This document shows, piece by piece, positions 34,477 through 51,548 of a DNA stretch of 64,000 nucleotides. Each line of letters starts with the position of its first letter. The first letter of the stretch is position 1. The stretch lies in assembly GCF_050920415.1 (NCBI RefSeq), contig NZ_CP169309.1; one strand, written 5' to 3'. The position numbers and the translations under genes are program-made. The stretch comes from Escherichia coli. GTDB taxonomy: Bacteria; Pseudomonadota; Gammaproteobacteria; Enterobacterales; Enterobacteriaceae. The notes beneath the pieces were generated by a model. That model saw nothing but the letters and a program-made list of their open reading frames with translations. It had not been told where the DNA came from and ran no database searches.

Positions 34477-34649
34477 GAATATATCCTTAAATTTAAATAT
34501 CCATCCAAAATATTTATTTGGTTAATATGTTTTTATGAAAGCGTAATTCAGGTCAATGTCACAATTAACCATTGTCACAATAAGGTTGAACGGATATTCT
34601 GAGCACGGACCACGTAATATTCAATACATTATTTGCTGCCGGGTTTTTC

Positions 34650-35363: not shown

Positions 35364-35393
35364 TCACCAAATGGATAGGGGATGATTTAACGA

Positions 35394-36152
35394 ATGGATG
35401 CACTACAAACACAAACTGTTAATAGTACAACCGCGCCGCAGCCCAACTACATTCCGGGGCTGATTGCGGTGGTCGGGTGTGATGGCACCGGTAAATCCAC
35501 ACTGACCACTGACCTGGTGAAATCGCTGCAACAACACTGGCAAACCGAGCGCCGCTATCTGGGGCTGCTCTCCGGCGAAGACGGCGACAAAATCAAACGG
35601 TTGCCGCTCGTTGGCGTCTGGCTGGAACGGCGACTGGCGGCCAAATCCTCGAAAACCCAAAGCATGAAAACCAAATCTCCGGCGCTATGGGCGGCGGTGA
35701 TTATGTACTGCTTCTCGCTGCGAAGAATGGCGAATCTACGCAAGGTTCAGCGACTGGCGCAAAGTGGCGTTCTGGTGGTCAGCGATCGCTTCCCGCAGGC
35801 TGAAATTTCGGGCTTTTATTATGACGGACCGGGGATTGGCATCGAGCGTGCGACCGGGAAAATCAGCATGTTTCTGGCCCAGCGCGAACGGCGTTTATAC
35901 CAAAAAATGGCGCAATACCGTCCTGAATTAATTATTCGTTTGGGGATTGATATTGATACTGCCATCTCCCGCAAGCCTGACCATGACTATGCCGAGCTGC
36001 AGGACAAAATCGGTGTCATGTCGACGATTGGCTATAACGGCACAAAAATTCTTGAGATTGATTCCAGAGCGCCCTACAGCGAAGTGCTGGAACAGGCACA
36101 GAAGGCGGTTTCTCTGGTTGCAATCGTTTCTGACCGCCGAAGTTTAACTTAA
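35394..36152 (+). CDS. yghR: P-loop kinase-like protein
   Basis: 252-aa ORF; GCDGTGKST and VSDRFP motifs. Confidence 0.85.
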   Translation: MDALQTQTVNSTTAPQPNYIPGLIAVVGCDGTGKSTLTTDLVKSLQQHWQTERRYLGLLSGEDGDKIKRLPLVGVWLERRLAAKSSKTQSMKTKSPALWAAVIMYCFSLRRMANLRKVQRLAQSGVLVVSDRFPQAEISGFYYDGPGIGIERATGKISMFLAQRERRLYQKMAQYRPELIIRLGIDIDTAISRKPDHDYAELQDKIGVMSTIGYNGTKILEIDSRAPYSEVLEQAQKAVSLVAIVSDRRSLT

Positions 36153-36197
36153 GGTTGGCGGGATACTTTTTATTATCAACGATAAGGTCAGGCTGAA

Positions 36198-37547
36198 TTG
36201 GCGGGGTTTAACATCAAACATTGGTTTGCAGATGGCGCGTTTCGCACCATTATTCGCAATAGCGCCTGGTTAGGCTCCAGTAATGTCGTGAGCGCTTTGC
36301 TGGGTCTGTTGGCGCTCTCGTGTGCCGGTAAAGGGATGACGCCCGCCATGTTTGGCGTACTGGTGATTGTGCAATCGTACGCCAAGTCGATCAGCGATTT
36401 TATTAAGTTTCAGACATGGCAGCTGGTGGTTCAGTACGGAACGCCAGCCTTGACCAATAATAATCCGCAGCAATTTCGCAATGTCGTCTCATTTTCCTTC
36501 TCGTTGGATATCGTCAGCGGCGCGGTGGCGATTGTCGGCGGCATTGCCTTACTCCCTTTTCTTTCCCATTCATTAGGTCTGGATGACCAAAGCTTTTGGC
36601 TGGCAGCGCTGTATTGCACGCTCATTCCTTCAATGGCTTCCTCCACACCGACCGGCATTCTGCGTGCAGTAGATCGCTTCGATTTGATTGCTGTACAGCA
36701 GGCGACGAAACCTTTTCTGCGCGCAGCGGGGAGCGTCGTAGCCTGGTATTTTGATTTTGGTTTTGCGGGTTTTGTTATTGCCTGGTACGCATCGAATCTG
36801 GTTGGCGGCACCATGTACTGGTGGTTTGCCGCGCGCGAATTACGCCGCAGAAATATCCATAACGCCTTCAAATTGAATCTGTTTGAGTCTGCCCGACACA
36901 TTAAAGGCGCGTGGAGTTTTGTCTGGTCAACCAACATTGCCCACTCCATCTGGTCGGCACGTAACTCGTGCAGCACAGTGTTGGTGGGGATCGTGTTAGG
37001 ACCCGCTGCCGCCGGGTTATTTAAAATCGCCATGACATTCTTCGATGCCGCCGGAACGCCAGCGGGTTTACTGGGCAAAAGTTTTTACCCAGAGGTGATG
37101 CGTTTAGATCCGCGTACCACCAGACCGTGGTTGTTAGGCGTGAAGTCCGGTTTACTGGCGGGCGGAATCGGTATTCTGGTGGCGCTCGCGGTGTTGATCG
37201 TCGGCAAGCCGCTCATTTCGCTGGTGTTTGGCGTTAAGTATCTCGAAGCGTATGACCTGATTCAGGTGATGCTTGGCGCAATTGTGATTTCGATGCTGGG
37301 CTTCCCACAGGAGTCATTGCTATTGATGGCGGGAAAACAGCGCGCTTTTCTCGTGGCGCAAACCATCGCCTCAATCGGCTACATCGTATTGCTGTTCATG
37401 TTCTGTCATCTGTTTGGCGTGCTGGGGGCTGCATTTGCTTACTTCGGTGGGCAATGTCTGGATGTGGTGCTCTCGTTAATTCCAACCTTAAAGGCATTTT
37501 TTCAGCGCCATTCCTTGCTTTATAACGCAGCCGGAGAGAAATCCTGA
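36198..37547 (+). CDS. yghQ: Polytopic inner-membrane protein, MOP/Wzx-like flippase family (putative lipid or polysaccharide flippase)
   Basis: 449-aa hydrophobic ORF; ORF-track start is TTG, so true start uncertain; synteny with yghRST. Confidence 0.75.
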   Translation: MAGFNIKHWFADGAFRTIIRNSAWLGSSNVVSALLGLLALSCAGKGMTPAMFGVLVIVQSYAKSISDFIKFQTWQLVVQYGTPALTNNNPQQFRNVVSFSFSLDIVSGAVAIVGGIALLPFLSHSLGLDDQSFWLAALYCTLIPSMASSTPTGILRAVDRFDLIAVQQATKPFLRAAGSVVAWYFDFGFAGFVIAWYASNLVGGTMYWWFAARELRRRNIHNAFKLNLFESARHIKGAWSFVWSTNIAHSIWSARNSCSTVLVGIVLGPAAAGLFKIAMTFFDAAGTPAGLLGKSFYPEVMRLDPRTTRPWLLGVKSGLLAGGIGILVALAVLIVGKPLISLVFGVKYLEAYDLIQVMLGAIVISMLGFPQESLLLMAGKQRAFLVAQTIASIGYIVLLFMFCHLFGVLGAAFAYFGGQCLDVVLSLIPTLKAFFQRHSLLYNAAGEKS

Positions 37548-38371
37548 TGATGAGAAAATATTTCCCGCTTGAGGCGAGCGAGCGTCTATTTATTGCAGTT
37601 GAAGAAGATGATGTCGTTGATGCGCAGGTCAGTTTACCGCCGACTATCGCAACAGGTTGTACCACCGAAATCATTCATGATAATTACGCGTTATGCCTGC
37701 AATTCTGGCTGAATGGCGTTGATCGTCAGGAATTACTGCGTTTAATCCACAAACAAGCCAAAGGCGAGGGGCTTACGGCTGACGAGCGTAAACAGTTTAA
37801 ATATATGCGGGCGCGTTATAAGCATCTACGTTTTGCCCAACGGTTGTATTTAAAAAAGCATCAGGCCGGATTTTTATTTGGCAAAACGACCGTTTTTCTT
37901 GGACGTTTTCAGGACGGCTTTCGTAACGGTAAGAAAAATATTGTGTCGTTTTACGGCAACCTTTTACGGATTTATTTAAGCTCTCCGGTCTAGTTGTTGG
38001 TGAACTATTCATTACGCCATAGCCAGTTAGAAAGCGTAAGCGGTTTTATTGCCTATCGGCAAAAGCAAATGCACCTCCTGAAAGAGATTATTGCCAAACC
38101 ACGGCTAACTGGCAGGGAATTTCATGATGTACGAAAAATAATCAGCCAGCAGGTTTCTTATTACGACACCCTAAGATCGCTTGATCCTGAAAATAAAGAA
38201 GCGTTACAGATTTCCCGCTTCCTCGCCGCCATTAATGGCCTGATGGGGGATAAACACGACGACATGGTGGCGGATGATATGGAAAACCGCCAGTCGTATG
38301 ATGCACCGATGGCGCTGGATAGCGATATTCGTCAGCGCTTAGAACTGCTGATTTCGCGTTTTCCGCTATAA
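37547..38371 (+). pseudogene. Hypothetical protein reading frame (275 codons) interrupted by a single in-frame TAG at 37991-37993; either a nonsense pseudogene or two adjacent ORFs
   Basis: ORF-track ORFs 37547-37993 and 37994-38371 are in the same frame and contiguous; start ATG overlaps the yghQ stop (TGATG). Confidence 0.4.
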
Positions 38372-38379
38372 CCGGAGCA

Positions 38380-38943
38380 ATGATGTCATCTCGTTTGATT
38401 ATTGCGCTGATTATCATGCTCTTAGCCCCGGGTGTGCAGGCGCACAATTTCGTCACTGGTAAAACGGTTACCCCTGTTTATATCCAGGAAGGCGGCGAGC
38501 TGCTTCTGAATAGCGACGACGAAATTCACTACCAAAAGTGGAACAGCACACAGCTGGCGGGAAAAGTCCGCATTATTCAGTATATCGCCGGGCGTAAGTC
38601 GGCGAAGAAAAAGAACTCACTGTTAATTAAAGCGGTTGAAGCGGCAAACTTTCCGCAGGATCGTTTTCAGCCCACCACCATTGTGAACACCGATGATGCC
38701 ATCTTTGGTACTGGCTATTTTGTCGTTGGCAAAATCGAAAAAAATAAACGCCGCTATCCGTGGGCGCAATTCGTTATTGACGGCAATGGACAGGGACGCG
38801 TTGTCTGGCGGTTGCCGGAGCAGAGTTCAACCATTCTGGTGCTGAATAAAGCCGGGCAAATTCAGTGGGCAAAGGACGGCAGCCTGACGCCGGAAGAGGT
38901 AGATCATGTCATTGCGCTGGCGCAGAAGCTGATCAATGAATAA
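38380..38943 (+). CDS. YtfJ-family periplasmic protein (signal peptide)
   Basis: 187-aa ORF; N-terminal signal MMSSRLIIALIIMLLAPGVQA; resembles E. coli YtfJ as I recall it. Confidence 0.6.
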   Translation: MMSSRLIIALIIMLLAPGVQAHNFVTGKTVTPVYIQEGGELLLNSDDEIHYQKWNSTQLAGKVRIIQYIAGRKSAKKKNSLLIKAVEAANFPQDRFQPTTIVNTDDAIFGTGYFVVGKIEKNKRRYPWAQFVIDGNGQGRVVWRLPEQSSTILVLNKAGQIQWAKDGSLTPEEVDHVIALAQKLINE

Positions 38944-38973
38944 AAAACTCAAAGGATTGAGGGCGTTAGTGAG

Positions 38974-40044
38974 ATGAAGCTGGTTGAACACTACATCATG
39001 CGTGGTACGCGCCGTCTGGTGCTGATTATCGTCGGTTTTCTGATCTTTATTTTCGCCAGCTACTCCGCACAGCGTTATCTGACCGAAGCGGCAAATGGGA
39101 CATTAGCTCTTGATGTTGTGCTGGATATTGTTTTCTACAAGGTGCTGATTGCACTGGAGATGTTGTTACCTGTTGGACTGTATGTGTCAGTTGGCGTGAC
39201 GCTAGGGCAGATGTATACCGACTCGGAAATTACCGCTATTTCTGCGGCGGGGGGGAGTCCGGGACGCTTGTACAAAGCCGTTCTTTATCTGGCGATACCG
39301 CTAAGTATTTTTGTCACCCTTCTGTCGATGTATGGTCGTCCGTGGGCTTATGCGCAGATTTATCAACTGGAGCAACAGTCGCAGTCGGAGCTGGATGTTC
39401 GCCAGTTGCGGGCAAAGAAATTTAACACTAACGATAACGGACGAATGATCCTTTCGCAGACGGTTGATCAGGATAATAATCGCCTGACTGACGTGCTGAT
39501 TTATACTTCTACTGCCAATCGAACCCGTATTTTCCGCGCCCGTTCGGTTGATGTAGTTGACCCATCACCCGAGAAACCGACCGTTATGTTGCATAACGGG
39601 ACCGCCTATCTTCTCGATCATCAGGGGCGTGACGACAACGAACAGATCTACCGTAATCTGCAATTGCATCTGAATCCGCTGGATCAAAGCCCTAACGTCA
39701 AACGCAAAGCAAAATCGGTCACGGAGCTGGCGCGCTCCGCCTTTCCTGCCGATCATGCCGAACTGCAATGGCGACAAAGCCGTGGCCTGACAGCATTGTT
39801 GATGGCGCTGCTGGCCATTTCATTAAGTCGGGTAAAACCGCGGCAAGGGCGATTTTCAACGTTATTGCCACTGACGTTGCTGTTTGTTGCCATTTTTTAT
39901 GGCGGCGACGTCTGCCGTACGCTGGTGGCTAACGGCGCGATTCCCCTCATTCCTGGTTTGTGGTTAGTACCCGGACTCATGCTAATGGGCCTGCTGATGC
40001 TGGTCGCACGCGACTTCTCTTTGCTGCAGAAATTTTCCCGATGA
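38974..40044 (+). CDS. LptF-like permease (YjgP/YjgQ family) paralog
   Basis: 356-aa ORF; N-terminal TM then large periplasmic segment then C-terminal TMs, the LptF/LptG architecture. Confidence 0.7.
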   Translation: MKLVEHYIMRGTRRLVLIIVGFLIFIFASYSAQRYLTEAANGTLALDVVLDIVFYKVLIALEMLLPVGLYVSVGVTLGQMYTDSEITAISAAGGSPGRLYKAVLYLAIPLSIFVTLLSMYGRPWAYAQIYQLEQQSQSELDVRQLRAKKFNTNDNGRMILSQTVDQDNNRLTDVLIYTSTANRTRIFRARSVDVVDPSPEKPTVMLHNGTAYLLDHQGRDDNEQIYRNLQLHLNPLDQSPNVKRKAKSVTELARSAFPADHAELQWRQSRGLTALLMALLAISLSRVKPRQGRFSTLLPLTLLFVAIFYGGDVCRTLVANGAIPLIPGLWLVPGLMLMGLLMLVARDFSLLQKFSR

Positions 40045-41120
40045 ATGTTTTCAGTCGCTATTTAATTCGTCATCTCTTTCTCGGTTTTGCCGCCGCCGCA
40101 GGGCTATTGCTGCCGCTCTTTACCACCTTCAACCTGATTAACGAACTGGATGATGTCAGCCCGGGTGGTTATCGCTGGACTCAGGCGGTGCTGGTGGTGC
40201 TGATGACCTTACCGCGCACACTGGTCGAACTTTCGCCGTTTATCGCCTTATTGGGAGGGATTGTCGGCCTGGGGCAGTTATCGAAAAACAGTGAGCTTAC
40301 CGCCATTCGCAGCACGGGGTTTTCTATCTTCCGTATTGCACTGGTGGCGCTGGTTGCCGGGATATTGTGGACTGTTTCATTAGGCACGATAGATGAGTGG
40401 GTGGCGTCGCCATTGCAGCAACAGGCGCTGCAAATCAAATCGACTGCCACTGCGTTGGGGGAGGACGATGACATTACCGGCAATATGCTGTGGGCCAGGC
40501 GTGGTAATGAATTTGTGACGGTGAAATCGCTGAACGAGCAGGGCCAGCCGGTGGGCGTGGAGATATTTCATTACCGCGACGATCTCTCGCTCGAATCCTA
40601 CATTTATGCACGCAGTGCCACCATTGAAGACGACAAAACGTGGATCCTGCATGGTGTGAATCATAAAAAATGGCTGAATGGCAAAGAAACGCTGGAAACA
40701 TCTGATAATCTTGCCTGGCAATCGGCCTTCACCAGTATGAATCTTGAAGAGTTATCGATGCCGGGAAATACTTTTTCTGTCCGTCAACTTAATCATTACA
40801 TCCATTATTTGCAGGAAACCGGGCAACCCAGCAGCGAATACCGCTTTGCACTGTGGGAAAAACTGGGACAACCCATCTTGACCCTTGCGATGATTTTGCT
40901 GGCTGTGCCGTTTACCTTTAGTGCCCCGCGTTCGCCTGGGATGGGTAGCCGTCTCGCTGTAGGCGTCATCGTGGGGTTACTCACCTGGAGCAGCTATCAA
41001 ATCATGGTCAATCTGGGATTGCTATTTGCGTTGAGCGCACCTGTTACCGCGCTCGGTTTACCGATAGCGTTTATGCTGGTGGCGTTGAGCCTGGTGTATT
41101 GGTATGACAGTCAACATTAA
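40041..41120 (+). CDS. LptG-like permease (YjgP/YjgQ family) paralog
   Basis: Start at ATGA overlap with upstream gene (MNVFSRYLIRHL); same architecture; 359 aa. Confidence 0.7.
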   Translation: MNVFSRYLIRHLFLGFAAAAGLLLPLFTTFNLINELDDVSPGGYRWTQAVLVVLMTLPRTLVELSPFIALLGGIVGLGQLSKNSELTAIRSTGFSIFRIALVALVAGILWTVSLGTIDEWVASPLQQQALQIKSTATALGEDDDITGNMLWARRGNEFVTVKSLNEQGQPVGVEIFHYRDDLSLESYIYARSATIEDDKTWILHGVNHKKWLNGKETLETSDNLAWQSAFTSMNLEELSMPGNTFSVRQLNHYIHYLQETGQPSSEYRFALWEKLGQPILTLAMILLAVPFTFSAPRSPGMGSRLAVGVIVGLLTWSSYQIMVNLGLLFALSAPVTALGLPIAFMLVALSLVYWYDSQH

Positions 41121-41154
41121 ACCCGCCGTGGCGCAGCACCACAGCGGGCTCACA

Positions 41155-42327
41155 TTACTGCTTCAGAGTAGCAAATGCCTGAATGATGGCATCGATTTGC
41201 TCACGAGTGTGGGCAGCGTTTACGCTACAGCGCAGCAGCGTGATGCCTGCAGGCGCGGCAGGTGGCAGGATAAGATTCACATAAACGCCCAGCGAAATAA
41301 GCTCGCGCCAGATGCGTAAACCTTCCTCTTTCGAACCGATTATTACTGGCACTACCGGGCTAATATGTGAACTTAACTCGTAACCCAGTTTTTGCAGACC
41401 GTCATACAGATGGCTGGCGTTATCCATCAGCTTTTGCCGCAACTCTGGTTGTGAGGCAATGGTTCTTAACGACGAGCGCACGGTCGCAATGCAGGACGGA
41501 GAAGGAGAGGCGGTAAAAATATACGGGCGGCTGCCGTAGCGCAGCACTTCCATCGCTTCCGAACCGACAGCAAAACCGCCAATCGAGGCCAGACTTTTAC
41601 TGAAAGTACCAACGATAATATCCACATCATCTTCAACGCCAACGGCTTCAGCCAGTCCGCGCCCCGTTGCGCCTAACACGCCAAACGAATGCGCTTCATC
41701 GACAATCAAATAACCACCGAGACGACGTTTGATATCAACAATTTCCGCCAGCGGCGCAACGTCACCGAGCATACTGTAGATGCCTTCAACGATGATAATC
41801 GCCTCTTTTGCCCGTTCACCGAGGCGAACCATGCGCCGTTCCAGATCTTTAGCATCGTTATGGCGGAAACGAATAATTTCCGCTCCACCGAGAGAACAGG
41901 CGTCATAAATACTGGCGTGGCTATCGGCATCCAGTAACACCACGGCGTTATGGTCGGCAAGTGCGCTGATGACACCTAAATTAGCGGTATAACCGGTTGA
42001 AAAAACGATAGCGGTAGGGCGATTGAAAAACTCGGCAATCTCTTTCTCTAACGCCAGATGTGGCGCATAGCTGCCATTAGCCATACGAGAACCGGTAGTG
42101 CCGGTGCCTTGTGCCGCTAATGCTGCCTGACCTTCGGTGATGGCATCATGATTGAAAGTTAAACCGAGATAATTATTAGTCCCGGCCAGAATCACTTTTT
42201 TATTGCCGATACGGCCTTCAGTGGCGGAGTACACTTCATCAATACAGGTACCAAACGGCGTTAATCCGTTGTCACTAAATTGCAGTCGCTCGCCAGCAAG
42301 GCGCGCATATTTATCGTATAGCCCCAT
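41155..42327 (-). CDS. PLP-dependent alpha-oxoamine synthase (serine palmitoyltransferase / BioF / Kbl family)
   Basis: 390-aa ORF; conserved VDEAHSFGVLG and PLP-lysine GTFSKSL motifs. Confidence 0.8.
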   Translation of the reverse strand: MGLYDKYARLAGERLQFSDNGLTPFGTCIDEVYSATEGRIGNKKVILAGTNNYLGLTFNHDAITEGQAALAAQGTGTTGSRMANGSYAPHLALEKEIAEFFNRPTAIVFSTGYTANLGVISALADHNAVVLLDADSHASIYDACSLGGAEIIRFRHNDAKDLERRMVRLGERAKEAIIIVEGIYSMLGDVAPLAEIVDIKRRLGGYLIVDEAHSFGVLGATGRGLAEAVGVEDDVDIIVGTFSKSLASIGGFAVGSEAMEVLRYGSRPYIFTASPSPSCIATVRSSLRTIASQPELRQKLMDNASHLYDGLQKLGYELSSHISPVVPVIIGSKEEGLRIWRELISLGVYVNLILPPAAPAGITLLRCSVNAAHTREQIDAIIQAFATLKQ

Positions 42328-42575
42328 TATTTATTCTCCAGCCATGGAAGTAGAGTTTCCATTAATTGCGCAGGGGTTTTGACATCCAGCAGAATATTAA
42401 TAGGAATGGAAATATCGAATCTGTCTTCCAGCATCATTAAGAGATCCATCACTTTGATCGACTCCAGGCCAAGATCGTTGACGAGATCGCTGTCGGGCTT
42501 AATTTCCACACCGTTTTCGACCAAATCCTGTAAACAGGAAAGGATGTAATCCATTACTATTTCACGATTTACCAT
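42327..42575 (-). CDS. Acyl carrier protein (dedicated, not housekeeping acpP)
   Basis: 82-aa acidic ORF with phosphopantetheine-attachment-like motif DLGLESIKVMDL. Confidence 0.75.
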   Translation of the reverse strand: MVNREIVMDYILSCLQDLVENGVEIKPDSDLVNDLGLESIKVMDLLMMLEDRFDISIPINILLDVKTPAQLMETLLPWLENK

Positions 42576-42606
42576 AGAAACGTTAACACACCTTTAAACA
42601 AGACAA

Positions 42607-43521
42607 TCAAAATAGCCCGCTGCGTAATGCGTGTTCCAGGCTAATCCCGGGAAACCAATTAATATCTTCAGAAATACGGTTATTACTTGCTGACCAGTCG
42701 GCGTGGGTTAATTCACGGATTTTCGAGCGGGTCAGCATAGGTTCTTTACCTGCCAGGCGACTCAACGCGGTACTGATATCCGCAAGGCAGGTGAGTACCG
42801 ACAGAGGAATACCAACCATTCGAACGGAACCGCAACGGGCGTCGGCGGCAAGTTGCTGTACGCGTTGCCAGTCATAGCCGCCGGCGACGCCATCGCATAA
42901 TTCATAGGTTTGCGTTTGTACAGTTTCGGCGCTTAACCACTGCCCCACGGCTTGCGCGAAATCGGTGACGTGCAGGAAAGAGAGCTGTGTATCTGGCGCA
43001 CCAAGTCGTGGCAGCAGGCCGCGCAGCATCCAGCCAAACAGCGGTTTTAACTCTTTATCGCCGGGACCATACACGGCTGTCGGGCGAAAAATGCCCAGCG
43101 TAATTTCGTCAGCCATTGCGGTCAGTCGTTGTTCGGCGACGTGTTTGGAATTTGCGTACCAGGAGAGTTCGGGATGGCGCGCCGCCAGCGAAGAGATAAA
43201 CAGAAAACGTTGGCAAAAGCCGCTCTCTTTTGCCGCTTGCATCAGGCGCAGGCTGCCGTCAACGTTACAGCGGGTAAAAATCTCTTCTTTGTGTCCGCGC
43301 ACTTGCCCGGCGCAATGGACCACCGCGCTGGCTCCGGCAACCAGTTCGCTAAGCGAATGTGTATCTTCCAGCGAACCGCGCACCCAGATGAGATTATCAT
43401 TGACGTGAGCGCGGGCAGTACGCGTCAATGCGCGAACGTGAAAGCCGCGGGCGAGCAGGTTATCGATAATATATTTACCGATAAACCCGGTAGCGCCCGT
43501 CACCGCGACAGTTTGATTCAT
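42607..43521 (-). CDS. NAD(P)-dependent epimerase/dehydratase-family (extended SDR) oxidoreductase; candidate 3-keto reductase
   Basis: 304-aa ORF; N-terminal Rossmann motif VTGATGFIG. Confidence 0.75.
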   Translation of the reverse strand: MNQTVAVTGATGFIGKYIIDNLLARGFHVRALTRTARAHVNDNLIWVRGSLEDTHSLSELVAGASAVVHCAGQVRGHKEEIFTRCNVDGSLRLMQAAKESGFCQRFLFISSLAARHPELSWYANSKHVAEQRLTAMADEITLGIFRPTAVYGPGDKELKPLFGWMLRGLLPRLGAPDTQLSFLHVTDFAQAVGQWLSAETVQTQTYELCDGVAGGYDWQRVQQLAADARCGSVRMVGIPLSVLTCLADISTALSRLAGKEPMLTRSKIRELTHADWSASNNRISEDINWFPGISLEHALRSGLF

Positions 43522-45236
43522 GCCATGGATTCCTGCACATGAAGGCTTGCAGCATAACGTTTTTTCGCTTCCGCACGGGCAGGCTTGCCGGAGGACGTTC
43601 GGGGAATACTGTGGGGCGGCAACAGATCGATAGCCGCTGTTACGCCAAATTCGCTTTGGATCCGTGCTGCCAGTGCGTGGATAAGCTGCCCACGACGTTC
43701 TTCGTCGCTGATCCTACACTGGATCTGCAAAATGATTTTTTCCTGGGCGGTAACAAAAGCAATCGCATCGCCAGAATGAATTTCCGGTTCCTGTTCCGCA
43801 ATATATTCAATATCCTGCGGCCAGATATTACGGCCACGAATAATAATCAGATCTTTAATGCGCCCGGTGACATACAGATAACCATCCAGCAGATAACCGA
43901 GGTCGCCGGTATCTAACCAGCCCGTCGCGGCAATCTCGTCTTGCGAAACCTGGTCGCCAAAGTAACCGCTCATCAGGCTGGGGCCGGAGATGCAAATATG
44001 GCCTACCACACGTTCCGCGACCGGCATACCTGCTTCATTGCGGATTTCAATGCCATGTTCCGGCAACGCTTTACCGCAGTTGACGAAAGTCGATACGGCG
44101 CGTGTTTCAGCACCCGGCGCGACGGCTTTGCCCTGATATTCAAGGATGTCGCGATCCACTTCGTTAACCACAACCCCGGAGGCTTCATCAGAGAAGCTGA
44201 CAGCCAGCGCATTTTCTGCCAGTCCGTAGCACGGCATGAAAGTTTTATCGTCAAAGTTAACCTGACGGAAACATTCAGCAAATTGGTGGAGTTGTTCTGC
44301 GGAGATGGGTTCTGCGCCAATACCAGCGACGCGCCAGCACGAGAGATCCAGTTCAGCGAGATCTTTTTCATTCACGCGGCGCTGACACAATTCATAGCCA
44401 AACGGCGGCGCGACGGAAACTGTGCCACGATTTTTACTGATCAATTTAAGCCATTGCAGCGGACGCATGGCAAAATCCTGAGTGCGCAAATAATCTACTG
44501 AGAGCTGCGTGGCGACGGGGGTCAGGAGAAAGCCGACCAGTCCCATATCATGGTAGAAAGGCAGCCAGGAGACGCAGCGGTCGCCAGGGCGTAATTTAAT
44601 GCCATCGTGGCTTATAGCACGTAGATTAGCCATCACTTCGCGATGGGTGATAATGACGCCACGGGGAAAACGGGTGCTGCCGGAGGTGTACTGGAGGTAG
44701 GCGATATCGTTCGGAACTGGACGCTGGAGTACAACATCGGCTTCCGGTAATGCCTTAAACCAGGCGTGGCTTAAAACATGTAATTCGGGGTTGTTATGCG
44801 TAGCAGCATTGACCAGTGGCAACCACTCATCACCAGTGATAATGGCTGCGGGCTGGCAACTAGCCAGTAAACCTTGCAGTTTAGCGCTCCAGGAATCCCG
44901 CTGACCGACGCCCATTGGAATCGCTAACGGGACGGCGACTAAGCCGGCATACTGGCAGGCAAAAAAAGCCTCTACAAACCCGCTACTCGTTTCGGCAATC
45001 AGCGCCACGCGATCGCCTTTTTTCAGATTTAGTGATAACAACCGCTTCGCACCAGCTTCGGCACACGCTTTTAACGTCTGATATTCCAGTTGATCTTCAA
45101 GTTGGCAACGTCTGTCATAAAAATTCATTCCGGCGCTACTCAGAGCGGCGTAGTCCAAAGCATCAACCAGCGTTGGAAAATCGGCATAGCGCATAGGTAG
45201 GGAATGCGTAAAGATGTTATTAGACATATACACCAC
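43518..45236 (-). CDS. Fatty acyl-AMP ligase / acyl-ACP synthetase (AMP-binding superfamily)
   Basis: 572-aa ORF; AMP-binding signature YTSGSTRFPRGV; overlaps downstream reductase gene by 4 nt. Confidence 0.8.
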   Translation of the reverse strand: MVYMSNNIFTHSLPMRYADFPTLVDALDYAALSSAGMNFYDRRCQLEDQLEYQTLKACAEAGAKRLLSLNLKKGDRVALIAETSSGFVEAFFACQYAGLVAVPLAIPMGVGQRDSWSAKLQGLLASCQPAAIITGDEWLPLVNAATHNNPELHVLSHAWFKALPEADVVLQRPVPNDIAYLQYTSGSTRFPRGVIITHREVMANLRAISHDGIKLRPGDRCVSWLPFYHDMGLVGFLLTPVATQLSVDYLRTQDFAMRPLQWLKLISKNRGTVSVAPPFGYELCQRRVNEKDLAELDLSCWRVAGIGAEPISAEQLHQFAECFRQVNFDDKTFMPCYGLAENALAVSFSDEASGVVVNEVDRDILEYQGKAVAPGAETRAVSTFVNCGKALPEHGIEIRNEAGMPVAERVVGHICISGPSLMSGYFGDQVSQDEIAATGWLDTGDLGYLLDGYLYVTGRIKDLIIIRGRNIWPQDIEYIAEQEPEIHSGDAIAFVTAQEKIILQIQCRISDEERRGQLIHALAARIQSEFGVTAAIDLLPPHSIPRTSSGKPARAEAKKRYAASLHVQESMA

Positions 45237-45598
45237 GAAAAAAATTGGATATCAGAAATAAAATGACAATAATGCGGTGGATTATATAGGCATAAAAGAT
45301 AAATGAGATAGTATTTTCATCGGTGCGATATTGAACATTGATTTAAATAATAGGTTTGGCTTTGTTGTTTTTATTGTGAATTATATTTAATTTATGAATA
45401 TATTAAGAAGAAGCCTTGTTTGGTTGCCTTAAATCGACAAAAGGCATTGAGGCGCTTCTGTGTAGTCTCTGACCTTATCTTAATTATTAATAAATACTAT
45501 TTATTCTTTGTTTGTATTCTTTGGGTTGATTATTAAGATGCCGTTCGTTGCTGTTGCAATCTGTTTGTCACCGTTAATTATTTGTTATCCACAGAGAT
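45237..45598. promoter_or_regulatory. AT-rich divergent promoter region between the acyl-AMP ligase operon and yghO
   Basis: 362 bp, visibly AT-rich with multiple A/T tracts; flanked by divergently oriented start codons. Confidence 0.45.
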
Positions 45599-46741
45599 AT
45601 GGAATGCGATCTGCTGATGATTAAAATTGAAAAAGTAATTAATAAAAATGACCTTAAGGCATTTATCGCTTTTCCGTCATCACTTTATCCCGATGATCCA
45701 AACTGGATACCCCCTTTGTTCATTGAACGCAGCGAGCATTTGTCGGCGAAGAATCCGGGGACGGACCATATTATCTGGCAGGCGTGGGTAGCAAAAAAAG
45801 CGGGGCAGATAGTCGGGCGGATTACCGCGCAAATCGATACCTTGCACCGCGAGCGTTACGGTGACGATACCGGTCATTTCGGCATGATTGACGCCATTGA
45901 TGATCCGCAGGTTTTTGCCGCGTTGTTTGGCGCAGCGGAAGCGTGGTTGAAGTCACAAGGTGCAAGTAAGATCAGCGGGCCTTTCAGCCTGAATATCAAT
46001 CAGGAAAGCGGATTACTGATTGAAGGTTTCGACACTCCGCCCTGTGCGATGATGCCGCACGGTAAACCGTGGTATGCCGCGCATATTGAACAATTGGGTT
46101 ATCACAAAGGTATTGATTTACTGGCGTGGTGGATGCAACGAACCGATCTCACTTTCTCTCCGGCGCTAAAAAAACTGATGGATCAGGTGCGCAAAAAGGT
46201 GACCATTCGCTGCATCAAGCGCCAGCGGTTTGCCGAAGAGATGCTGATCCTGCGTGAGATTTTCAACTCTGGCTGGCAGCACAACTGGGGATTTGTGCCG
46301 TTTACCGAACATGAATTCGCTACCATGGGCGATCAACTAAAGTATCTGGTACCGGACGATATGATCTACGTCGCCGAGATTGATTCTGCTCCCTGCGCGT
46401 TTATAGTCGGCTTGCCGAACATCAACGAGGCGATTGCCGATCTGAACGGAGCGCTCTTTCCCTTCGGCTGGGCAAAATTGCTGTGGCGCTTAAAAGTCAG
46501 CGGTGTGCGAACTGCGCGAGTGCCGCTGATGGGCGTGCGTGACGAGTATCAGTTCAGCCGCATCGGCCCGGTGATTGCGCTGTTATTGATTGAAGCCTTA
46601 CGCGATCCGTTTGCTCGCCGGAAGATCGATGCGCTGGAAATGTCATGGATCCTCGAAACCAATACAGGCATGAATAACATGCTGGAACGCATTGGAGCGG
46701 AGCCGTACAAGCGTTACCGATTGTATGAAAAGCAGATTTGA
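45599..46741 (+). CDS. yghO: YghO, intact; putative GNAT-like acyltransferase (family assignment tentative)
   Basis: 380-aa uninterrupted ORF; synteny next to glcC; K-12 yghO is an annotated pseudogene as I recall. Confidence 0.7.
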   Translation: MECDLLMIKIEKVINKNDLKAFIAFPSSLYPDDPNWIPPLFIERSEHLSAKNPGTDHIIWQAWVAKKAGQIVGRITAQIDTLHRERYGDDTGHFGMIDAIDDPQVFAALFGAAEAWLKSQGASKISGPFSLNINQESGLLIEGFDTPPCAMMPHGKPWYAAHIEQLGYHKGIDLLAWWMQRTDLTFSPALKKLMDQVRKKVTIRCIKRQRFAEEMLILREIFNSGWQHNWGFVPFTEHEFATMGDQLKYLVPDDMIYVAEIDSAPCAFIVGLPNINEAIADLNGALFPFGWAKLLWRLKVSGVRTARVPLMGVRDEYQFSRIGPVIALLLIEALRDPFARRKIDALEMSWILETNTGMNNMLERIGAEPYKRYRLYEKQI

Positions 46742-47762: not shown

Positions 47763-49262
47763 ATGAGCATCTTGTACGAAGAGCGTCTTGATGGCGCTTT
47801 ACCCGATGTCGACCGCACATCGGTACTGATGGCACTGCGTGAGCATGTCCCTGGACTGGAGATCCTGCATACCGATGAGGAGATCATTCCTTACGAGTGT
47901 GACGGGTTGAGCGCGTATCGTACGCGTCCATTACTGGTTGTTCTGCCTAAGCAGATGGAACAGGTGACGGCGATTCTCGCTGTCTGCCACCGTTTGCATG
48001 TACCGGTAGTGACCCGTGGCGCAGGCACCGGACTTTCTGGCGGTGCGCTGCCGCTGGAAAAAGGTGTGTTGTTGGTGATGGCGCGCTTTAAAGAAATCCT
48101 CGACATTAACCCCGTTGGTCGCCGTGCGCGTGTGCAGCCGGGCGTGCGTAACCTGGCGATCTCCCAGGCTGTTGCGTCGCATAATCTCTATTACGCGCCG
48201 GATCCTTCCTCACAAATCGCCTGTTCCATTGGCGGCAACGTGGCGGAAAACGCCGGGGGCGTCCACTGTCTGAAATATGGTCTGACCGTACATAACCTGC
48301 TGAAAATTGAAGTGCAAACGCTGGATGGCGAGGCACTAACGCTGGGATCGGACGCGCTGGATTCACCCGGTTTTGACCTACTGGCGCTGTTCACCGGATC
48401 GGAAGGCATGCTCGGCGTGACCACCGAAGTGACGGTAAAACTGCTGCCGAAGCCCCCTGTGGCACGAGTTCTGTTAGCCAGCTTTGACTCGGTAGAAAAA
48501 GCCGGACTTGCAGTTGGTGACATCATCGCTAATGGCATTATCCCCGGCGGGCTGGAGATGATGGATAACCTGTCGATCCGCGCGGCGGAAGATTTTATTC
48601 ATGCCGGTTATCCCGTCGATGCCGAAGCAATTTTATTGTGTGAGTTGGACGGCGTGGAATCTGATGTACAGGAAGACTGCGAGCGAGTTAACGGCATCTT
48701 ACTGAAAGCGGGCGCGACTGACGTCCGTCTGGCGCAGGATGAAGCGGAGCGCGTGCGTTTCTGGGCCGGCCGCAAAAATGCTTTTCCGGCGGTAGGACGT
48801 ATCTCCCCGGATTACTACTGCATGGACGGCACCATCCCGCGCCGCGCGTTGCCTGGCGTACTGGAAGGCATTGCCCGTTTATCGCAGCAATATGATTTAC
48901 GCGTTGCCAACGTCTTTCATGCCGGAGACGGCAATATGCACCCGTTAATCCTTTTCGATGCCAACGAACCCGGTGAATTCGCCCGTGCGGAAGAATTGGG
49001 TGGGAAGATCCTTGAACTCTGTGTTGAAGTAGGCGGCAGTATCAGTGGGGAACATGGCATCGGGCGCGAAAAAATCAATCAGATGTGCGCCCAGTTCAAC
49101 AGTGATGAAATTACTACCTTTCATGCAGTCAAGGCGGCGTTTGATCCTGATGGTTTGCTGAACCCTGGGAAAAACATCCCCACACTGCACCGCTGCGCTG
49201 AATTTGGTGCCATGCACGTGCATCACGGTCATTTACCTTTCCCTGAACTGGAGCGTTTCTGA
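47763..49262 (+). CDS. glcD: Glycolate oxidase subunit GlcD (FAD-binding)
   Basis: 499-aa ORF; FAD-linked oxidase family; synteny. Confidence 0.93.
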   Translation: MSILYEERLDGALPDVDRTSVLMALREHVPGLEILHTDEEIIPYECDGLSAYRTRPLLVVLPKQMEQVTAILAVCHRLHVPVVTRGAGTGLSGGALPLEKGVLLVMARFKEILDINPVGRRARVQPGVRNLAISQAVASHNLYYAPDPSSQIACSIGGNVAENAGGVHCLKYGLTVHNLLKIEVQTLDGEALTLGSDALDSPGFDLLALFTGSEGMLGVTTEVTVKLLPKPPVARVLLASFDSVEKAGLAVGDIIANGIIPGGLEMMDNLSIRAAEDFIHAGYPVDAEAILLCELDGVESDVQEDCERVNGILLKAGATDVRLAQDEAERVRFWAGRKNAFPAVGRISPDYYCMDGTIPRRALPGVLEGIARLSQQYDLRVANVFHAGDGNMHPLILFDANEPGEFARAEELGGKILELCVEVGGSISGEHGIGREKINQMCAQFNSDEITTFHAVKAAFDPDGLLNPGKNIPTLHRCAEFGAMHVHHGHLPFPELERF

Positions 49263-50314
49263 TGCTACGCGAGTGTGATTACAGCCAGGTACTGCTGGAG
49301 CAGGTGAATCAGGCAATTAGCGATAAAACGCCGCTGGCGATTCAGGGAAGCAATAGCAAAGCCTTTTTAGGTCGTCCTGTCATCGGGCAAACGCTGGATG
49401 TGCGTTGCCATCGTGGCATTGTTAATTACGACCCGACCGAGCTGGTGATTACCGCGCGTGCCGGAACGCCGCTGGTGGCGATTGAAGCGGCGCTGGAGAG
49501 CGCGGGGCAAATGCTCCCCTGCGAGCCACCGCATTATGGTGACGAAGCCACCTGGGGCGGTATGGTCGCCTGCGGGCTGGCGGGGCCGCGTCGCCCGTGG
49601 AGCGGTTCGGTTCGCGATTTTGTCCTCGGCACGCGCATCATTACCGGCACTGGAAAACATCTGCGCTTTGGTGGCGAAGTGATGAAAAACGTTGCCGGAT
49701 ACGATCTCTCGCGGTTAATGGCCGGAAGCTACGGCTGTCTTGGCGTGCTCACTGAAATCTCGATGAAAGTGTTGCCGCGACCGCGCGCCACACTGAGCTT
49801 GCGTCGGGAAATAAGCCTGCAAGAAGCCATGAGTGAAATCGCCCAGTGGCAACTCCAGCCATTACCCATTAGTGGCTTATGTTACTTCGACAATGCGTTG
49901 TGGATCCGCCTTGAAGGCGGTGAAGGATCGGTAAAAGCAGCACGTGAACTGCTGGGTGGCGAAGAGGTTGCGGGTCAGTTCTGGCAGCAATTGCGTGAAC
50001 AACAACTGCCGTTCTTCTCATTACCGGGCACTTTATGGCGTATTTCCTTACCCACCGATGCGCCGATGATGGATTTACCCGGCGAGCAACTGATCGACTG
50101 GGGCGGCGCGTTACGTTGGCTGAAATCGACAGCCGATGACAATCAAATCCATCGCATTGCCCGCAACGCAGGCGGTCATGCGACCCGCTTTAGTGCCGGA
50201 GATGGTGGCTTTGCCCCGCTACCGGCTCCTTTATTCCGCTATCACCAGCAGCTTAAACAGCAGCTCGACCCTTGCGGCGTGTTTAACCCCGGTCGTATGT
50301 ACGCGGAACTTTAA
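49262..50314 (+). CDS. glcE: Glycolate oxidase subunit GlcE
   Basis: 350-aa ORF overlapping glcD stop. Confidence 0.92.
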   Translation: MLRECDYSQVLLEQVNQAISDKTPLAIQGSNSKAFLGRPVIGQTLDVRCHRGIVNYDPTELVITARAGTPLVAIEAALESAGQMLPCEPPHYGDEATWGGMVACGLAGPRRPWSGSVRDFVLGTRIITGTGKHLRFGGEVMKNVAGYDLSRLMAGSYGCLGVLTEISMKVLPRPRATLSLRREISLQEAMSEIAQWQLQPLPISGLCYFDNALWIRLEGGEGSVKAARELLGGEEVAGQFWQQLREQQLPFFSLPGTLWRISLPTDAPMMDLPGEQLIDWGGALRWLKSTADDNQIHRIARNAGGHATRFSAGDGGFAPLPAPLFRYHQQLKQQLDPCGVFNPGRMYAEL

Positions 50315-50324
50315 GGAGCAGACT

Positions 50325-51548
50325 ATGCAAACCCGGTTAACTGAAGAGATGCTTCAGAACGCACGTGCGCTGGAAGCCGACAGCATCCTGCGCGCCTGTG
50401 TTCACTGTGGGTTTTGTACTGCAACCTGCCCAACCTATCAGCTTTTGGGCGATGAACTGGACGGGCCGCGCGGGCGCATCTATCTGATTAAACAGGTGCT
50501 GGAGGGCAACGAAGTCACGCTTAAAACGCAGGAGCATCTCGATCGCTGCCTCACTTGCCGCAATTGTGAAACCACCTGTCCTTCTGGTGTGCGCTATCAC
50601 AATTTGCTGGATATCGGGCGTGATATTGTCGAGCAGAAAGTGAAACGCCCACTGCCAGAACGAATGCTGCGCGAAGGGTTGCGCCAGGTTGTGCCGCGTC
50701 CGGCGGTCTTCCGTGCGCTGACGCAGGTAGGGCTGGTGCTGCGACCGTTGTTACCAGAGCAAGTCAGAGCAAAATTGCCCGCTGGAACCGTGAAAGCCAA
50801 ACCGCGTCCGCCGCTGCGCCATAAGCGCCGGGTTTTAATGCTGGAAGGCTGCGCCCAGCCTACGCTTTCGCCCAATACCAACGCGGCAACTGCGCGAGTG
50901 CTGGATCGTCTGGGGATCAGCGTCATGCCAGCTAACGAAGCAGGCTGTTGTGGCGCGGTGGACTATCATCTTAATGCGCAAGAGAAAGGGCTAGCGCGGG
51001 CGCGAAATAATATTGATGCCTGGTGGCCCGCGATTGAAGCCGGTGCCGAGGCAATTTTACAAACCGCCAGCGGTTGCGGCGCGTTCGTGAAAGAGTATGG
51101 GCAGATGCTGAAAAGTGATGCGTTGTACGCCGATAAAGCGCGTCGGGTCAGTGAACTGGCGGTCGATTTAGTCGAACTTCTGCGCAAGGAACCGCTGGAA
51201 AAACTGGCAATTCGCGGCGATAAAAAACTGGCCTTCCACTGCCCGTGTACCCTACAACATGCGCAAAAGCTGAACGGCGAAGTAGAAAAAGTGTTACTTC
51301 GTCTTGGATTTACCTTAACCGACGTTCCCGACAGCCATCTGTGCTGCGGGTCGGCGGGAACGTATGCATTAACGCATCCCGATCTGGCGCGCCAGCTGCG
51401 GGATAACAAAATGAATGCGCTGGAAAGCGGCAAACCGGAAATGATCGTCACCGCCAACATTGGTTGCCAGATGCATCTGGCGAGTGCCGGTCGTACCTCT
51501 GTGCGTCACTGGATTGAAATTGTAGAACAAGCCCTTGAAAAGGAATAA
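50325..51548 (+). CDS. glcF: Glycolate oxidase iron-sulfur subunit GlcF
   Basis: Start at internal Met (MQTRLTEEML) giving 407 aa; CxxCxxCxxxCP motifs. Confidence 0.92.
   Translation: MQTRLTEEMLQNARALEADSILRACVHCGFCTATCPTYQLLGDELDGPRGRIYLIKQVLEGNEVTLKTQEHLDRCLTCRNCETTCPSGVRYHNLLDIGRDIVEQKVKRPLPERMLREGLRQVVPRPAVFRALTQVGLVLRPLLPEQVRAKLPAGTVKAKPRPPLRHKRRVLMLEGCAQPTLSPNTNAATARVLDRLGISVMPANEAGCCGAVDYHLNAQEKGLARARNNIDAWWPAIEAGAEAILQTASGCGAFVKEYGQMLKSDALYADKARRVSELAVDLVELLRKEPLEKLAIRGDKKLAFHCPCTLQHAQKLNGEVEKVLLRLGFTLTDVPDSHLCCGSAGTYALTHPDLARQLRDNKMNALESGKPEMIVTANIGCQMHLASAGRTSVRHWIEIVEQALEKE

Follow-up and report, generated by a model that had tools for sequence, protein, structure and literature searches.

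The operon at 41155-45236 of the window (the whole stretch of 64 000 nucleotides of Escherichia coli DNA that was analysed, from contig NZ_CP169309.1) is read, with a probability of about 0.93, as the core of a bacterial pathway for sphingolipids (dihydroceramide), the E. coli form of a system that was first elucidated in Caulobacter. The system is already known, being both annotated in RefSeq and published. In the proposed route, AasR (EcFAAL) would adenylate a long-chain fatty acid and load it onto the phosphopantetheine arm at Ser39 of AcpR rather than onto CoA; the PLP enzyme Spt would use Lys244 to condense acyl-AcpR with L-serine, giving 3-oxo-sphinganine and CO2; the divergently encoded YghO, which is of the tandem-GNAT type and homologous to bacterial ceramide synthase, would add the amide-linked acyl chain; and the NDUFA9-like SDR CerR would reduce the 3-keto group to yield dihydroceramide. 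It is speculative that a head group is added afterwards and that the linked YghQ flippase and LptF2/LptG2 export the product. Acyl-AcpR loading and 3-oxo-sphinganine formation have been shown experimentally for orthologues of 96–100% identity, and the acylation by YghO and reduction by CerR are predicted because both proteins have homologues in Caulobacter whose genes have been defined genetically.

The first-pass annotation had described a translationally coupled operon of four genes, and all four open reading frames were found on the minus strand at 41155-45236 (Table 1). Both overlaps that it had reported were read directly from the sequence: 4 nt between the ligase stop and the reductase start (ATGA, 43521-43518) and 1 nt between the carrier-protein stop and the spt start (TAATG, at 42327). 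These overlaps would allow translational coupling; the reductase and carrier-protein genes are separated by a 31-nt spacer. The ATGA overlap is also kept in Serratia and Pluralibacter, in which acpR and spt overlap by 14 nt as against 1 nt here. A hairpin directly after the spt stop (minimum free energy −27.7 kcal/mol, z-score −5.3 versus shuffles) is likely to mark the end of the operon transcript; its terminator function is put forward as an inference because the U-tract that follows is weak. The AT-rich region between aasR and yghO presumably holds the promoters of both units. Promoter-like matches were no commoner there than in shuffles, so that no promoter was mapped. Variation among E. 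coli peaks in this region (π 0.06–0.09).

Table 1. Features of the sphingolipid locus and its surroundings (window coordinates).
Feature	Position	Strand	Assignment	Basis or remark
yghT	33784-34476	-	Thymidylate-kinase-like P-loop	RefSeq annotation
yghS	34650-35363	+	Thymidylate-kinase-like P-loop	RefSeq annotation
yghR	35394-36152	+	P-loop	NCBIfam match, RefSeq annotation
yghQ	36198-37547	+	MOP flippase, full-length	NCBIfam match, RefSeq annotation
274-aa protein gene	37547-38371	+		Interrupted here by TAG at 37991-37993
YtfJ-family gene	38383-38943	+	YtfJ-family periplasmic protein	NCBIfam match, RefSeq annotation
Second lptF	38974-40044	+	LptF copy	Convergent with spt
Second lptG	40041-41120	+	LptG copy	Convergent with spt
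Hairpin	41118-41152	-	Likely transcript end	Directly after spt stop, in 34-nt gap to convergent lptG2
spt	41155-42327	-	Serine palmitoyltransferase (alpha-oxoamine synthase), 390 aa	NF047599 equivalog; start overlaps acpR stop
acpR	42327-42575	-	Dedicated acyl carrier protein, 82 aa	Phosphopantetheine at Ser39
cerR (epi)	42607-43521	-	Extended-SDR, NDUFA9-like ketoreductase of ceramide pathway, 304 aa	Pfam, PDB, motifs; start overlaps aasR stop (ATGA)
aasR	43518-45236	-	Fatty acyl-AMP ligase / AcpR-specific acyl-ACP synthetase (EcFAAL)	NF006624, PDB 3PBK
aasR/yghO intergenic region	45237-45598		Divergent, AT-rich; presumed promoters	GC 0.41-0.46
yghO (aca / bCerS homologue)	45599-46741	+	Predicted N-acyltransferase for second acyl chain, 380 aa	Fold and Caulobacter homology

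All five motifs quoted in the first-pass annotation are present in the translations, and its four enzyme identities proved correct as judged by family models, near-identity to crystallized EcFAAL and retention of catalytic residues. The scores for the ligase (871 bits against the NCBIfam fatty acyl-AMP ligase model NF006624, cutoff 600) and for Spt (599.6 bits, E = 2e-180, against the NCBIfam serine palmitoyltransferase equivalog NF047599, cutoff 500) mean that the assignment is not due to chance. The aasR product comprises 572 residues from a GTG start at 45236; RefSeq places the start at an ATG at 45227 (569 residues) and the BL21 annotation 11 codons further in. In the numbering of the 572-residue form, the YTSGSTRFPRGV motif lies at residue 183, and the FAAL-specific elements for CoA rejection are present (Trp224, Met231, Phe279 and the helix Thr252–Arg258). 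Judged by its sequence, the ligase is EcFAAL, the protein of crystal structure 3PBK: the match to this entry is near-identical over the full length (1271 bits) and is broken only by a few substitutions and a four-residue C-terminal indel. According to the available portions of PMC8460268, EcFAAL was crystallized with lauroyl-adenylate (Zhang et al., 2011, cited therein), passes acyl groups to the neighbouring ACP (EcACP) and rejects CoA; these portions treat it as a model FAAL and make no mention of sphingolipid synthesis.

In AcpR the DLGLESIKVMDL motif lies at residue 34 and the candidate serine is Ser39, which alignment places at the DSL serine of ACPs of known structure, as the first-pass annotation had anticipated. 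ACP family models match the protein at scores under their cutoffs. AcpR is identical to its BL21 counterpart (ECD_02853 / WP_000248097.1) at both the protein and the nucleotide level, and the BL21 protein incorporates β-alanine and carries 4′-phosphopantetheine (PMC9386255). E. coli genomes show no variation in a stretch of 315 nt around acpR.

The last gene of the operon, named spt in RefSeq, encodes a protein with VDEAHSFGVLG at residue 209 and GTFSKSL at residue 240, and its PLP lysine is Lys244. Its closest structure in the PDB is serine palmitoyltransferase from S. paucimobilis (SpSPT; 2JG2, 375 bits), and solved structures of the BioF/Kbl type score 177–187 bits. Alignment with SpSPT equates His137 of the His-Ala-Ser motif, Asp210, His213, Lys244 and Arg366 of Spt with His159, Asp231, His234, Lys265 and Arg390, so that all five catalytic residues are kept and the predicted position of the PLP lysine is borne out. 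The two enzymes differ in that SpSPT has been characterized with acyl-CoA, whereas the E. coli enzyme prefers acyl-AcpR. Of the NCBIfam models, E. coli Spt falls under 'BetaP' rather than 'AlphaP'. Identities as BioF, Kbl or CqsA were rejected, all three family models scoring under their curated cutoffs. BioF and Kbl of E. coli are recognizable paralogues that have the PLP fold type and Claisen-type decarboxylative/acyl-transfer chemistry in common with Spt, but they act on other substrates, lie in another genomic context and need no dedicated ACP or FAAL.

The first-pass annotation had left the amino-acid substrate open; it is L-serine, and the pathway is therefore one of sphingolipid synthesis and not of an unknown lipid. 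That the enzyme instead uses glycine, alanine or cysteate, leading to a sulfonolipid/capnine-like or CAI-1-like amino-lipid, is very improbable. Such a reading might draw on the absence of a named substrate in that annotation, on the presence of a cysteate acyltransferase and Kbl among the PDB matches of Spt, and on Leu354, which occupies the position of SpSPT Arg378, a residue near the substrate that forms a salt bridge with the serine carboxylate. The cysteate acyltransferase and Kbl matches, however, reach 200 bits against 375 for SPT; only the SPT equivalog passes its cutoff where the BioF, Kbl and CqsA models fall short; and the BL21 enzyme (ECD_02854), which is 98.7% identical, is active with serine all the same.

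The BL21(DE3) locus ECD_02850–ECD_02854 (yghO/aca, aasR, epi, acpR and spt; PMC9386255) is the same locus in the same order and orientation, the orthologous operon of another strain. Because the lineage of E. coli from which the window derives is a divergent one, the two differ allelically by ∼3.5% of nucleotides and in no other respect; AasR is 96.3% identical to ECD_02851, with a four-residue deletion near its C-terminus, and CerR is 96.4% identical to ECD_02852. With the BL21(DE3) proteins, AasR acylated AcpR (Padilla-Gomez et al., 2022, PMC9386255), and SPT produced 3-oxo-sphinganine from [14C]serine with a preference for acyl-AcpR (PMC9386255). These experiments support the route that had been predicted, from fatty acid through acyl-AMP and acyl-ACP to decarboxylative condensation with an amino acid and a 3-keto-amine that precedes the sphingoid base. 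The predicted chemistry was essentially right; its final part, reduction of the free base, concerns a disputed order of steps.

The same five protein families (AasR, CerR/Epi, AcpR, Spt and bCerS/Aca) are encoded by CC_1165–CC_1162 and CC_1154 of Caulobacter crescentus, at 34–53% identity to the BL21 orthologues. Both organisms have the order aasR–cerR–acpR–spt, and in both a flippase and second copies of LptF and LptG are encoded nearby. They differ in that homologues of the Caulobacter head-group genes are absent nearby in E. coli, and in that the Caulobacter ceramide kinase CpgB belongs to the LCB5/DAG-kinase type, YghR, YghS and YghT of E. coli being thymidylate-kinase-like.

YghO, missed by the first-pass annotation, is predicted to be the fifth pathway enzyme, an N-acyltransferase. 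It gave no family match in Pfam or NCBIfam; the top PDB folds for its AlphaFold model (pLDDT 96.2) are tandem-GNAT N-acyltransferases (E = 1e-15), its BL21 counterpart ECD_02850 is 44% identical to CC_1154 (1e-107), and in Serratia, Pluralibacter, Citrobacter and one further species yghO likewise adjoins the operon in divergent orientation. CerR matches the Pfam families Epimerase, NmrA and NAD_binding_10 and, in the PDB, NDUFA9-type SDRs; it carries VTGATGFIG at residue 7 (GxxGxxG at 9–15) and YxxxK at Tyr122/Lys126, and ECD_02852 is 34% identical to CC_1164 (7e-38). The Caulobacter homologues of YghO and CerR are required for ceramide synthesis (PMC9386255).

The order of these two steps is disputed. 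Deletion of cerR in Caulobacter leads to accumulation of oxidized ceramide, and in that organism CerR shows the behaviour of a periplasmic protein, Spt and bCerS being cytoplasmic (PMC11087976), which suggests N-acylation before reduction; by analogy, the E. coli reductase may act on N-acylated 3-keto-ceramide rather than on the free base. Both observations speak against the eukaryote-like order assumed in the first-pass annotation, in which a cytoplasmic CerR reduces 3-oxo-sphinganine and YghO then N-acylates sphinganine. This order was nevertheless proposed by the group that characterized the E. coli genes (PMC9386255). The Rossmann motif of E. coli CerR begins at residue 9 and leaves no room for an N-terminal signal peptide, a poor fit with the periplasmic CerR of Caulobacter; together with the apparent coupling of cerR to cytoplasmic aasR, it would fit a cytoplasmic reductase acting early. 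Reduction first is thus a tenable but lesser possibility, and acylation before reduction is modestly favoured.

The operon belongs to a cluster of ∼13 genes that is conserved in Enterobacterales and also encodes a flippase and second copies of LptF and LptG. The second lptF and lptG (TIGR04407, 323 bits; TIGR04408, 304 bits; dN/dS 0.07–0.09) show linkage to the operon in Pluralibacter and Citrobacter as well, and their products are candidate sphingolipid-export permeases by analogy with LptF2/LptG2 of the Caulobacter sphingolipid region, for which this role is itself a proposal (PMC11324152). The accessory set of yghR, yghQ, the 274-residue protein gene (no Pfam match) and the YtfJ-family gene adjoins spt in Serratia and Pluralibacter too, a linkage from which a role in sphingolipid metabolism is surmised. 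The annotation of yghT and yghS was transferred by coordinate offset from the RefSeq record of the identical strain; these genes lie at the cluster edge and only possibly belong to it. Three thymidylate-kinase-like P-loop genes lie beside spt in Serratia.

On the physiological role, 3-oxo-sphinganine was not detected by TLC in BL21(DE3) with empty vectors or over-expressing SPT alone (PMC9386255), so that the chromosomal operon appears silent in the laboratory, and a look through the literature turned up no sphingolipid reported from wild-type E. coli. The enzymes might work when over-expressed and the E. coli locus yet be a cryptic remnant that has no physiological product and is being lost. 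In K-12, aasR through part of yghQ has been lost by an IS5-associated deletion; 1223 of 5426 complete E. coli genomes contain nothing that matches the operon, and in 1360 no copy reaches 80% coverage; and a linked gene within the window carries a nonsense mutation. Decay is nonetheless improbable. All four operon genes are intact, with dN/dS of 0.04–0.17 versus BL21 (0.039 for spt and 0.047 for aasR) at dS 0.10–0.14, and dN/dS values of 0.02–0.17 show selection on the locus. The operon (RefSeq spt) is present in 4066 of the 5426 genomes (75%) and occurs in no fewer than eight further enterobacterial genera, and the five-gene module is kept in differing chromosomal contexts in Serratia, Pluralibacter, Citrobacter, Hafnia, Shimwellia, Erwinia and other Escherichia. 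Intact genes, low dN/dS and wide retention argue for a maintained function of the sphingolipid operon rather than decay.

Four consecutive minus-strand open reading frames, which the first-pass annotation had described as a translationally coupled operon for an acyl-AMP ligase, an SDR reductase, an ACP and an α-oxoamine synthase (AOS), form a four-gene operon in the window, as listed in the table. The aasR stop and the cerR start overlap in ATGA and acpR overlaps spt, which it directly precedes, by 1 nt in TAATG, both as claimed and read from the sequence; cerR and acpR are separated by a 31-nt spacer. Every sequence motif quoted in the annotation was recovered from the translations, and the PLP lysine (Lys244 of Spt) and the ACP serine (Ser39 of AcpR), the placement of which had been set beforehand as a refutation test, both lie at the conserved positions. 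The start of aasR is uncertain: initiation at the GTG at 45236 yields a 572-residue protein with numbering that agrees with the published EcFAAL residue numbers, RefSeq uses the ATG at 45227 in an identical strain and the BL21 start lies 11 codons later. A scan for promoters and terminators returned counts no higher than those from shuffled sequences, the sole standout on folding being a hairpin 3′ of the spt stop (−27.7 kcal/mol, z −5.3) within the 34 nt that separate spt from the convergent lptG2.

Table. The sphingolipid operon, the surrounding gene cluster and segments compared (positions in the window)
Feature	Coordinates	Strand	Length	Product or remark
aasR	45236..43518	minus	572 aa	fatty acyl-AMP ligase (EcFAAL)
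cerR (epi)	43521..42607	minus	304 aa	SDR
acpR	42575..42327	minus	82 aa	ACP
spt	42327..41155	minus	390 aa	AOS
Cluster around the operon	33784-41120 + 45599-46741			the members below
yghT, yghS, yghR				three thymidylate-kinase-like P-loop proteins
yghQ, full length				MOP flippase
Orphan gene	37547-38371		274 aa	split by an amber codon
YtfJ-family gene
lptF2, lptG2				second lptF and lptG
yghO	45599-46741			divergent from the operon
Invariant run	42305-42619		315 nt	cerR end, 31-nt spacer, whole acpR, first 23 nt of spt
cerR 3′ half	42700-42950			hypervariable segment
aasR-yghO intergenic region	45285-45583			presumed divergent promoter region
glcDEF	47763-51500			housekeeping neighbour

A sphingolipid operon is already known in E. 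coli. RefSeq names the last gene 'spt: serine palmitoyltransferase' and places it next to FAAL, epimerase-family and ACP genes, and the BL21(DE3) orthologues were described by Padilla-Gomez et al. (2022; PMC9386255) as ECD_02851 (aasR), ECD_02852 (epi), ECD_02853 (acpR), ECD_02854 (spt) and ECD_02850 (yghO/aca). The window proteins are 96.3% (AasR), 96.4% (CerR), 100% (AcpR) and 98.7% (Spt) identical to them. When compared with the BL21 proteins, the Caulobacter ceramide proteins show 53% identity for Spt, 44% for YghO (CC_1154, 1e-107), 42% for AasR and 41% for AcpR, and CC_1164 shows 34% (7e-38) for the CerR orthologue. With RefSeq names, one crystal structure and first committed steps reconstituted with E. 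coli proteins, the operon carries no weight as a discovery. It was matched at a query coverage of at least 80% in 4066 of 5426 complete E. coli genomes, and at ∼96% it is more conserved than the housekeeping neighbour glcDEF. The window differs from strain MFDS1022581 (NZ_CP169399) by one base across 20.5 kb, and the source strain is assigned, from sequence, to a divergent E. coli lineage. At glcDEF, identity is only 90–95% to 4508 complete E. coli genomes and reaches at least 99% in just one.

AasR passes the NCBIfam model of the fatty acyl-AMP ligase subfamily (NF006624; 871 bits, cutoff 600) and is near-identical to the E. coli FAAL of known crystal structure (PDB entry 3PBK; 1271 bits). 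It carries W224, M231, F279 and TQDFAMR at 252–258 (helix T252–R258), which are FAAL-specific CoA-blocking elements as defined for EcFAAL in PMC8460268. Patil et al. (2021; PMC8460268) demonstrated the acylation of EcACP by EcFAAL and the structural exclusion of CoA, and acyl transfer from AasR-Ec to AcpR-Ec has been published for the BL21 proteins (PMC9386255). The window enzyme would thus convert fatty acid via acyl-AMP to acyl-AcpR, as shown for near-identical orthologues. At its 3′ end (43518–43560) it is four residues shorter, with KRY----AASL in place of the KRYQKAYAASL of 3PBK and BL21.

In AcpR, Ser39 (within DLGLESIKV) falls in line with the serines of DLGLDSLDT and DLGADSLDV when solved ACPs are aligned, and four other genera retain it; it is the predicted phosphopantetheine-accepting position, where helix II begins. 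The identical protein AcpR-Ec (ECD_02853; WP_000248097.1) incorporates β-alanine (PMC9386255). Generic ACP family models scored under their cutoffs, as expected because AcpR is a divergent, specialized ACP.

The identity of the AOS was decided by family cutoffs and by the ranking of PDB scores. Spt passes the NCBIfam serine palmitoyltransferase equivalog (NF047599; 599.6 bits, cutoff 500) and falls below the cutoffs for BioF (TIGR00858; 334.8 bits, cutoff 426.45), Kbl (NF005394; 297.8 bits, cutoff 460) and CqsA (NF005526; 221.9 bits, cutoff 428); it is therefore a paralogue of BioF and Kbl and not a member of either family. The closest solved structure is the S. paucimobilis enzyme (SpSPT; PDB entry 2JG2) at 375 bits, with Kbl, BioF and cysteate acyltransferases at ∼200 bits or less. 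BioF, Kbl, CqsA, ALAS and cysteate acyltransferase are ruled out on these two grounds. On alignment to 2JG2, K244, H137-A138-S139, D210, H213 and R366 correspond to K265, H159, D231, H234 and R390 of SpSPT, the catalytic roles of which have been described (PMC6148460). The BL21 enzyme SPT-Ec, which is 98.7% identical, converts [14C]serine and prefers acyl-AcpR to palmitoyl-CoA, and AasR-Ec, AcpR-Ec and SPT-Ec together yield 3-oxo-sphinganine in vivo (PMC9386255). The window Spt would therefore condense acyl-AcpR with L-serine to give 3-oxo-sphinganine and CO2, as shown for near-identical orthologues. In SpSPT Arg378 swings in and forms a salt bridge to the serine carboxylate, whereas the window Spt has Leu354 (41266–41268) at this position while retaining Arg390 as R366. 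A leucine occupies the site in Spt of E. coli, Serratia and Pluralibacter, within the motif YVNL[IV]LPPAAPAG. Since E. coli Spt uses serine without Arg378, the leucine clade must have another way of holding the carboxylate.

The remaining two steps would be N-acylation by YghO and ketoreduction by CerR to dihydroceramide. YghO matched no Pfam or NCBIfam family and was identified solely by structure prediction and fold search; the model (pLDDT 96) retrieved tandem-GNAT acyltransferases, which fits the published assignment of YghO as a homologue of the Caulobacter ceramide synthase (PMC9386255). The family is large (1087 cluster representatives at E ≤ 1e-30) and linkage of yghO to spt was seen in five genera. 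YghO is thus a predicted N-acyltransferase of GNAT fold, homologous to CC_1154. CerR is an extended, NDUFA9-related SDR according to its PDB matches, with Pfam hits to Epimerase and NmrA, GxxGxxG at residues 9–15 and the YxxxK pair Y122/K126. On the basis of Caulobacter genetics it is a predicted 3-ketoreductase of 3-keto-(dihydro)ceramide or 3-oxo-sphinganine; a literature search found no enzyme assay for E. coli CerR. With an N-terminus of MNQTVAVTGATGFIG (43477–43521) and the Rossmann motif starting at residue 9, E. coli CerR cannot accommodate a Sec or Tat signal peptide, whereas a periplasmic location has been reported for the homologue in Caulobacter. Either the export of E. coli CerR would be noncanonical or the enzyme would be cytoplasmic.

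The order of these two steps differs between published schemes. In that of the Geiger laboratory reduction precedes N-acylation (PMC9386255), and work from the Klein laboratory on Caulobacter found that a cerR mutant accumulates oxidized ceramide and that CerR is periplasmic (PMC11087976). For E. coli we lean slightly towards acylation ahead of reduction. The final reduction to a long-chain base proposed in the first-pass annotation is plausible but not established; with such refinements its interpretation of the operon is supported.

Nucleotide variation across the locus is uneven. In an alignment of the operons of nine diverse E. coli genomes (π = 0.031, 389 of 4524 columns variable) the invariant run around acpR extends over 315 nt, the next longest being 78 nt, and between the window and BL21 acpR has zero nucleotide differences, against ∼3.5% in the flanking genes. 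With acpR as a 249-nt query, 4108 of 4109 E. coli genomes gave an identity of at least 99%; equal-length controls from spt and cerR reached this level in only two and 61 genomes, respectively, and the cerR control was only 80–90% identical in 999 E. coli genomes. The RNA stability of the tract is ordinary on either strand (z 0.11 and 0.35), an Rfam search gave no match and the antisense ORFs are short, start with TTG or GTG and are unconvincing. Other Escherichia species are 97.1–98.4% identical over the tract and 87–97% over its flanks, and their substitutions rule out an absolute constraint; two spt segments of Escherichia sp. MOD1-EC7003 are 96.5–97.3% identical. Comparisons inside Serratia and inside Pluralibacter showed too little divergence to be informative. 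Across genera, identical codons at conserved residues make up 52–68% in acpR and 40–52% in the neighbouring genes. The simplest reading of the tract is a slowly evolving small gene of which a single haplotype has been fixed across E. coli. The E. coli AcpR ends in LPWLENK at 82 residues (42327–42340), whereas in other genera it is four residues longer and the overlap with spt is 14 nt. The 3′ half of cerR, which encodes the C-terminal region that is at 80–90% identity to the window in those 999 genomes, is hypervariable (π up to 0.096), as is the aasR-yghO intergenic region (π 0.06–0.09), which suggests deeply diverged alleles or recombination.

The arrangement of yghO facing aasR-cerR-acpR-spt recurs in differing chromosomal neighbourhoods. 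It was seen in Serratia liquefaciens, Pluralibacter gergoviae, Citrobacter amalonaticus and one further species, and by a DNA pattern scan in Hafnia, Shimwellia, Citrobacter youngae, Erwinia and three other Escherichia species; the cluster around the operon is common to Serratia and Pluralibacter. A relationship of YghR, YghS and YghT to CpgB, the ceramide kinase of Caulobacter, was considered and rejected, CpgB being of LCB5/DAG-kinase type and the three proteins thymidylate-kinase-like. A literature search on the functions of yghQ/R/S/T returned nothing relevant, and the 274-residue cluster protein has no Pfam match. The single difference from MFDS1022581 falls in the gene for the latter: A instead of G at 37992 turns Trp149 (TGG, 37991–37993) into an amber stop and splits the frame into 148 and 125 residues. 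The change may mark a pseudogene particular to this strain, stem from an error in sequencing or have been introduced. In K-12 MG1655 an IS5 element has yghO on one side and a truncated yghQ on the other, and aasR through the 274-residue gene are gone; the pathway is therefore absent from the textbook strain.

Whether the locus is functional or decaying was considered from both sides. BL21 carrying empty vectors, or over-expressing SPT alone, shows no visible 3-oxo-sphinganine (PMC9386255), and a literature search for reports of native E. coli sphingolipids found none. Selection computed between the window and BL21 (dS 0.07–0.14) gave dN/dS values of 0.047 for aasR, 0.169 for cerR (the highest of the operon), 0.039 for spt, 0.091 for lptG2, 0.068 for lptF2 and 0.018 for yghQ. 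The low dN/dS, together with retention across genera, speaks against decay and in favour of a function that is maintained and expressed conditionally. A tentative wider reading, to which we give a probability of about 0.3, is that an Enterobacterales cluster of ∼13 genes is under purifying selection, with wild E. coli making an undetected, head-group-modified sphingolipid under non-laboratory conditions, a dedicated Lpt-like route carrying it to the outer membrane and the acpR tract possibly reflecting regulatory or translational constraint.

Roughly three in four sequenced E. coli strains, BL21(DE3) and many pathogens among them, possess a sphingolipid pathway that is intact, under selection and missing from K-12, and the remaining interest lies in the native product and in what the linked transport genes do. 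If the product exists, it would be an unrecognized outer-membrane component in the best-studied bacterium and could bear on envelope stress, sensitivity to antimicrobial peptides and host sphingolipid signalling.
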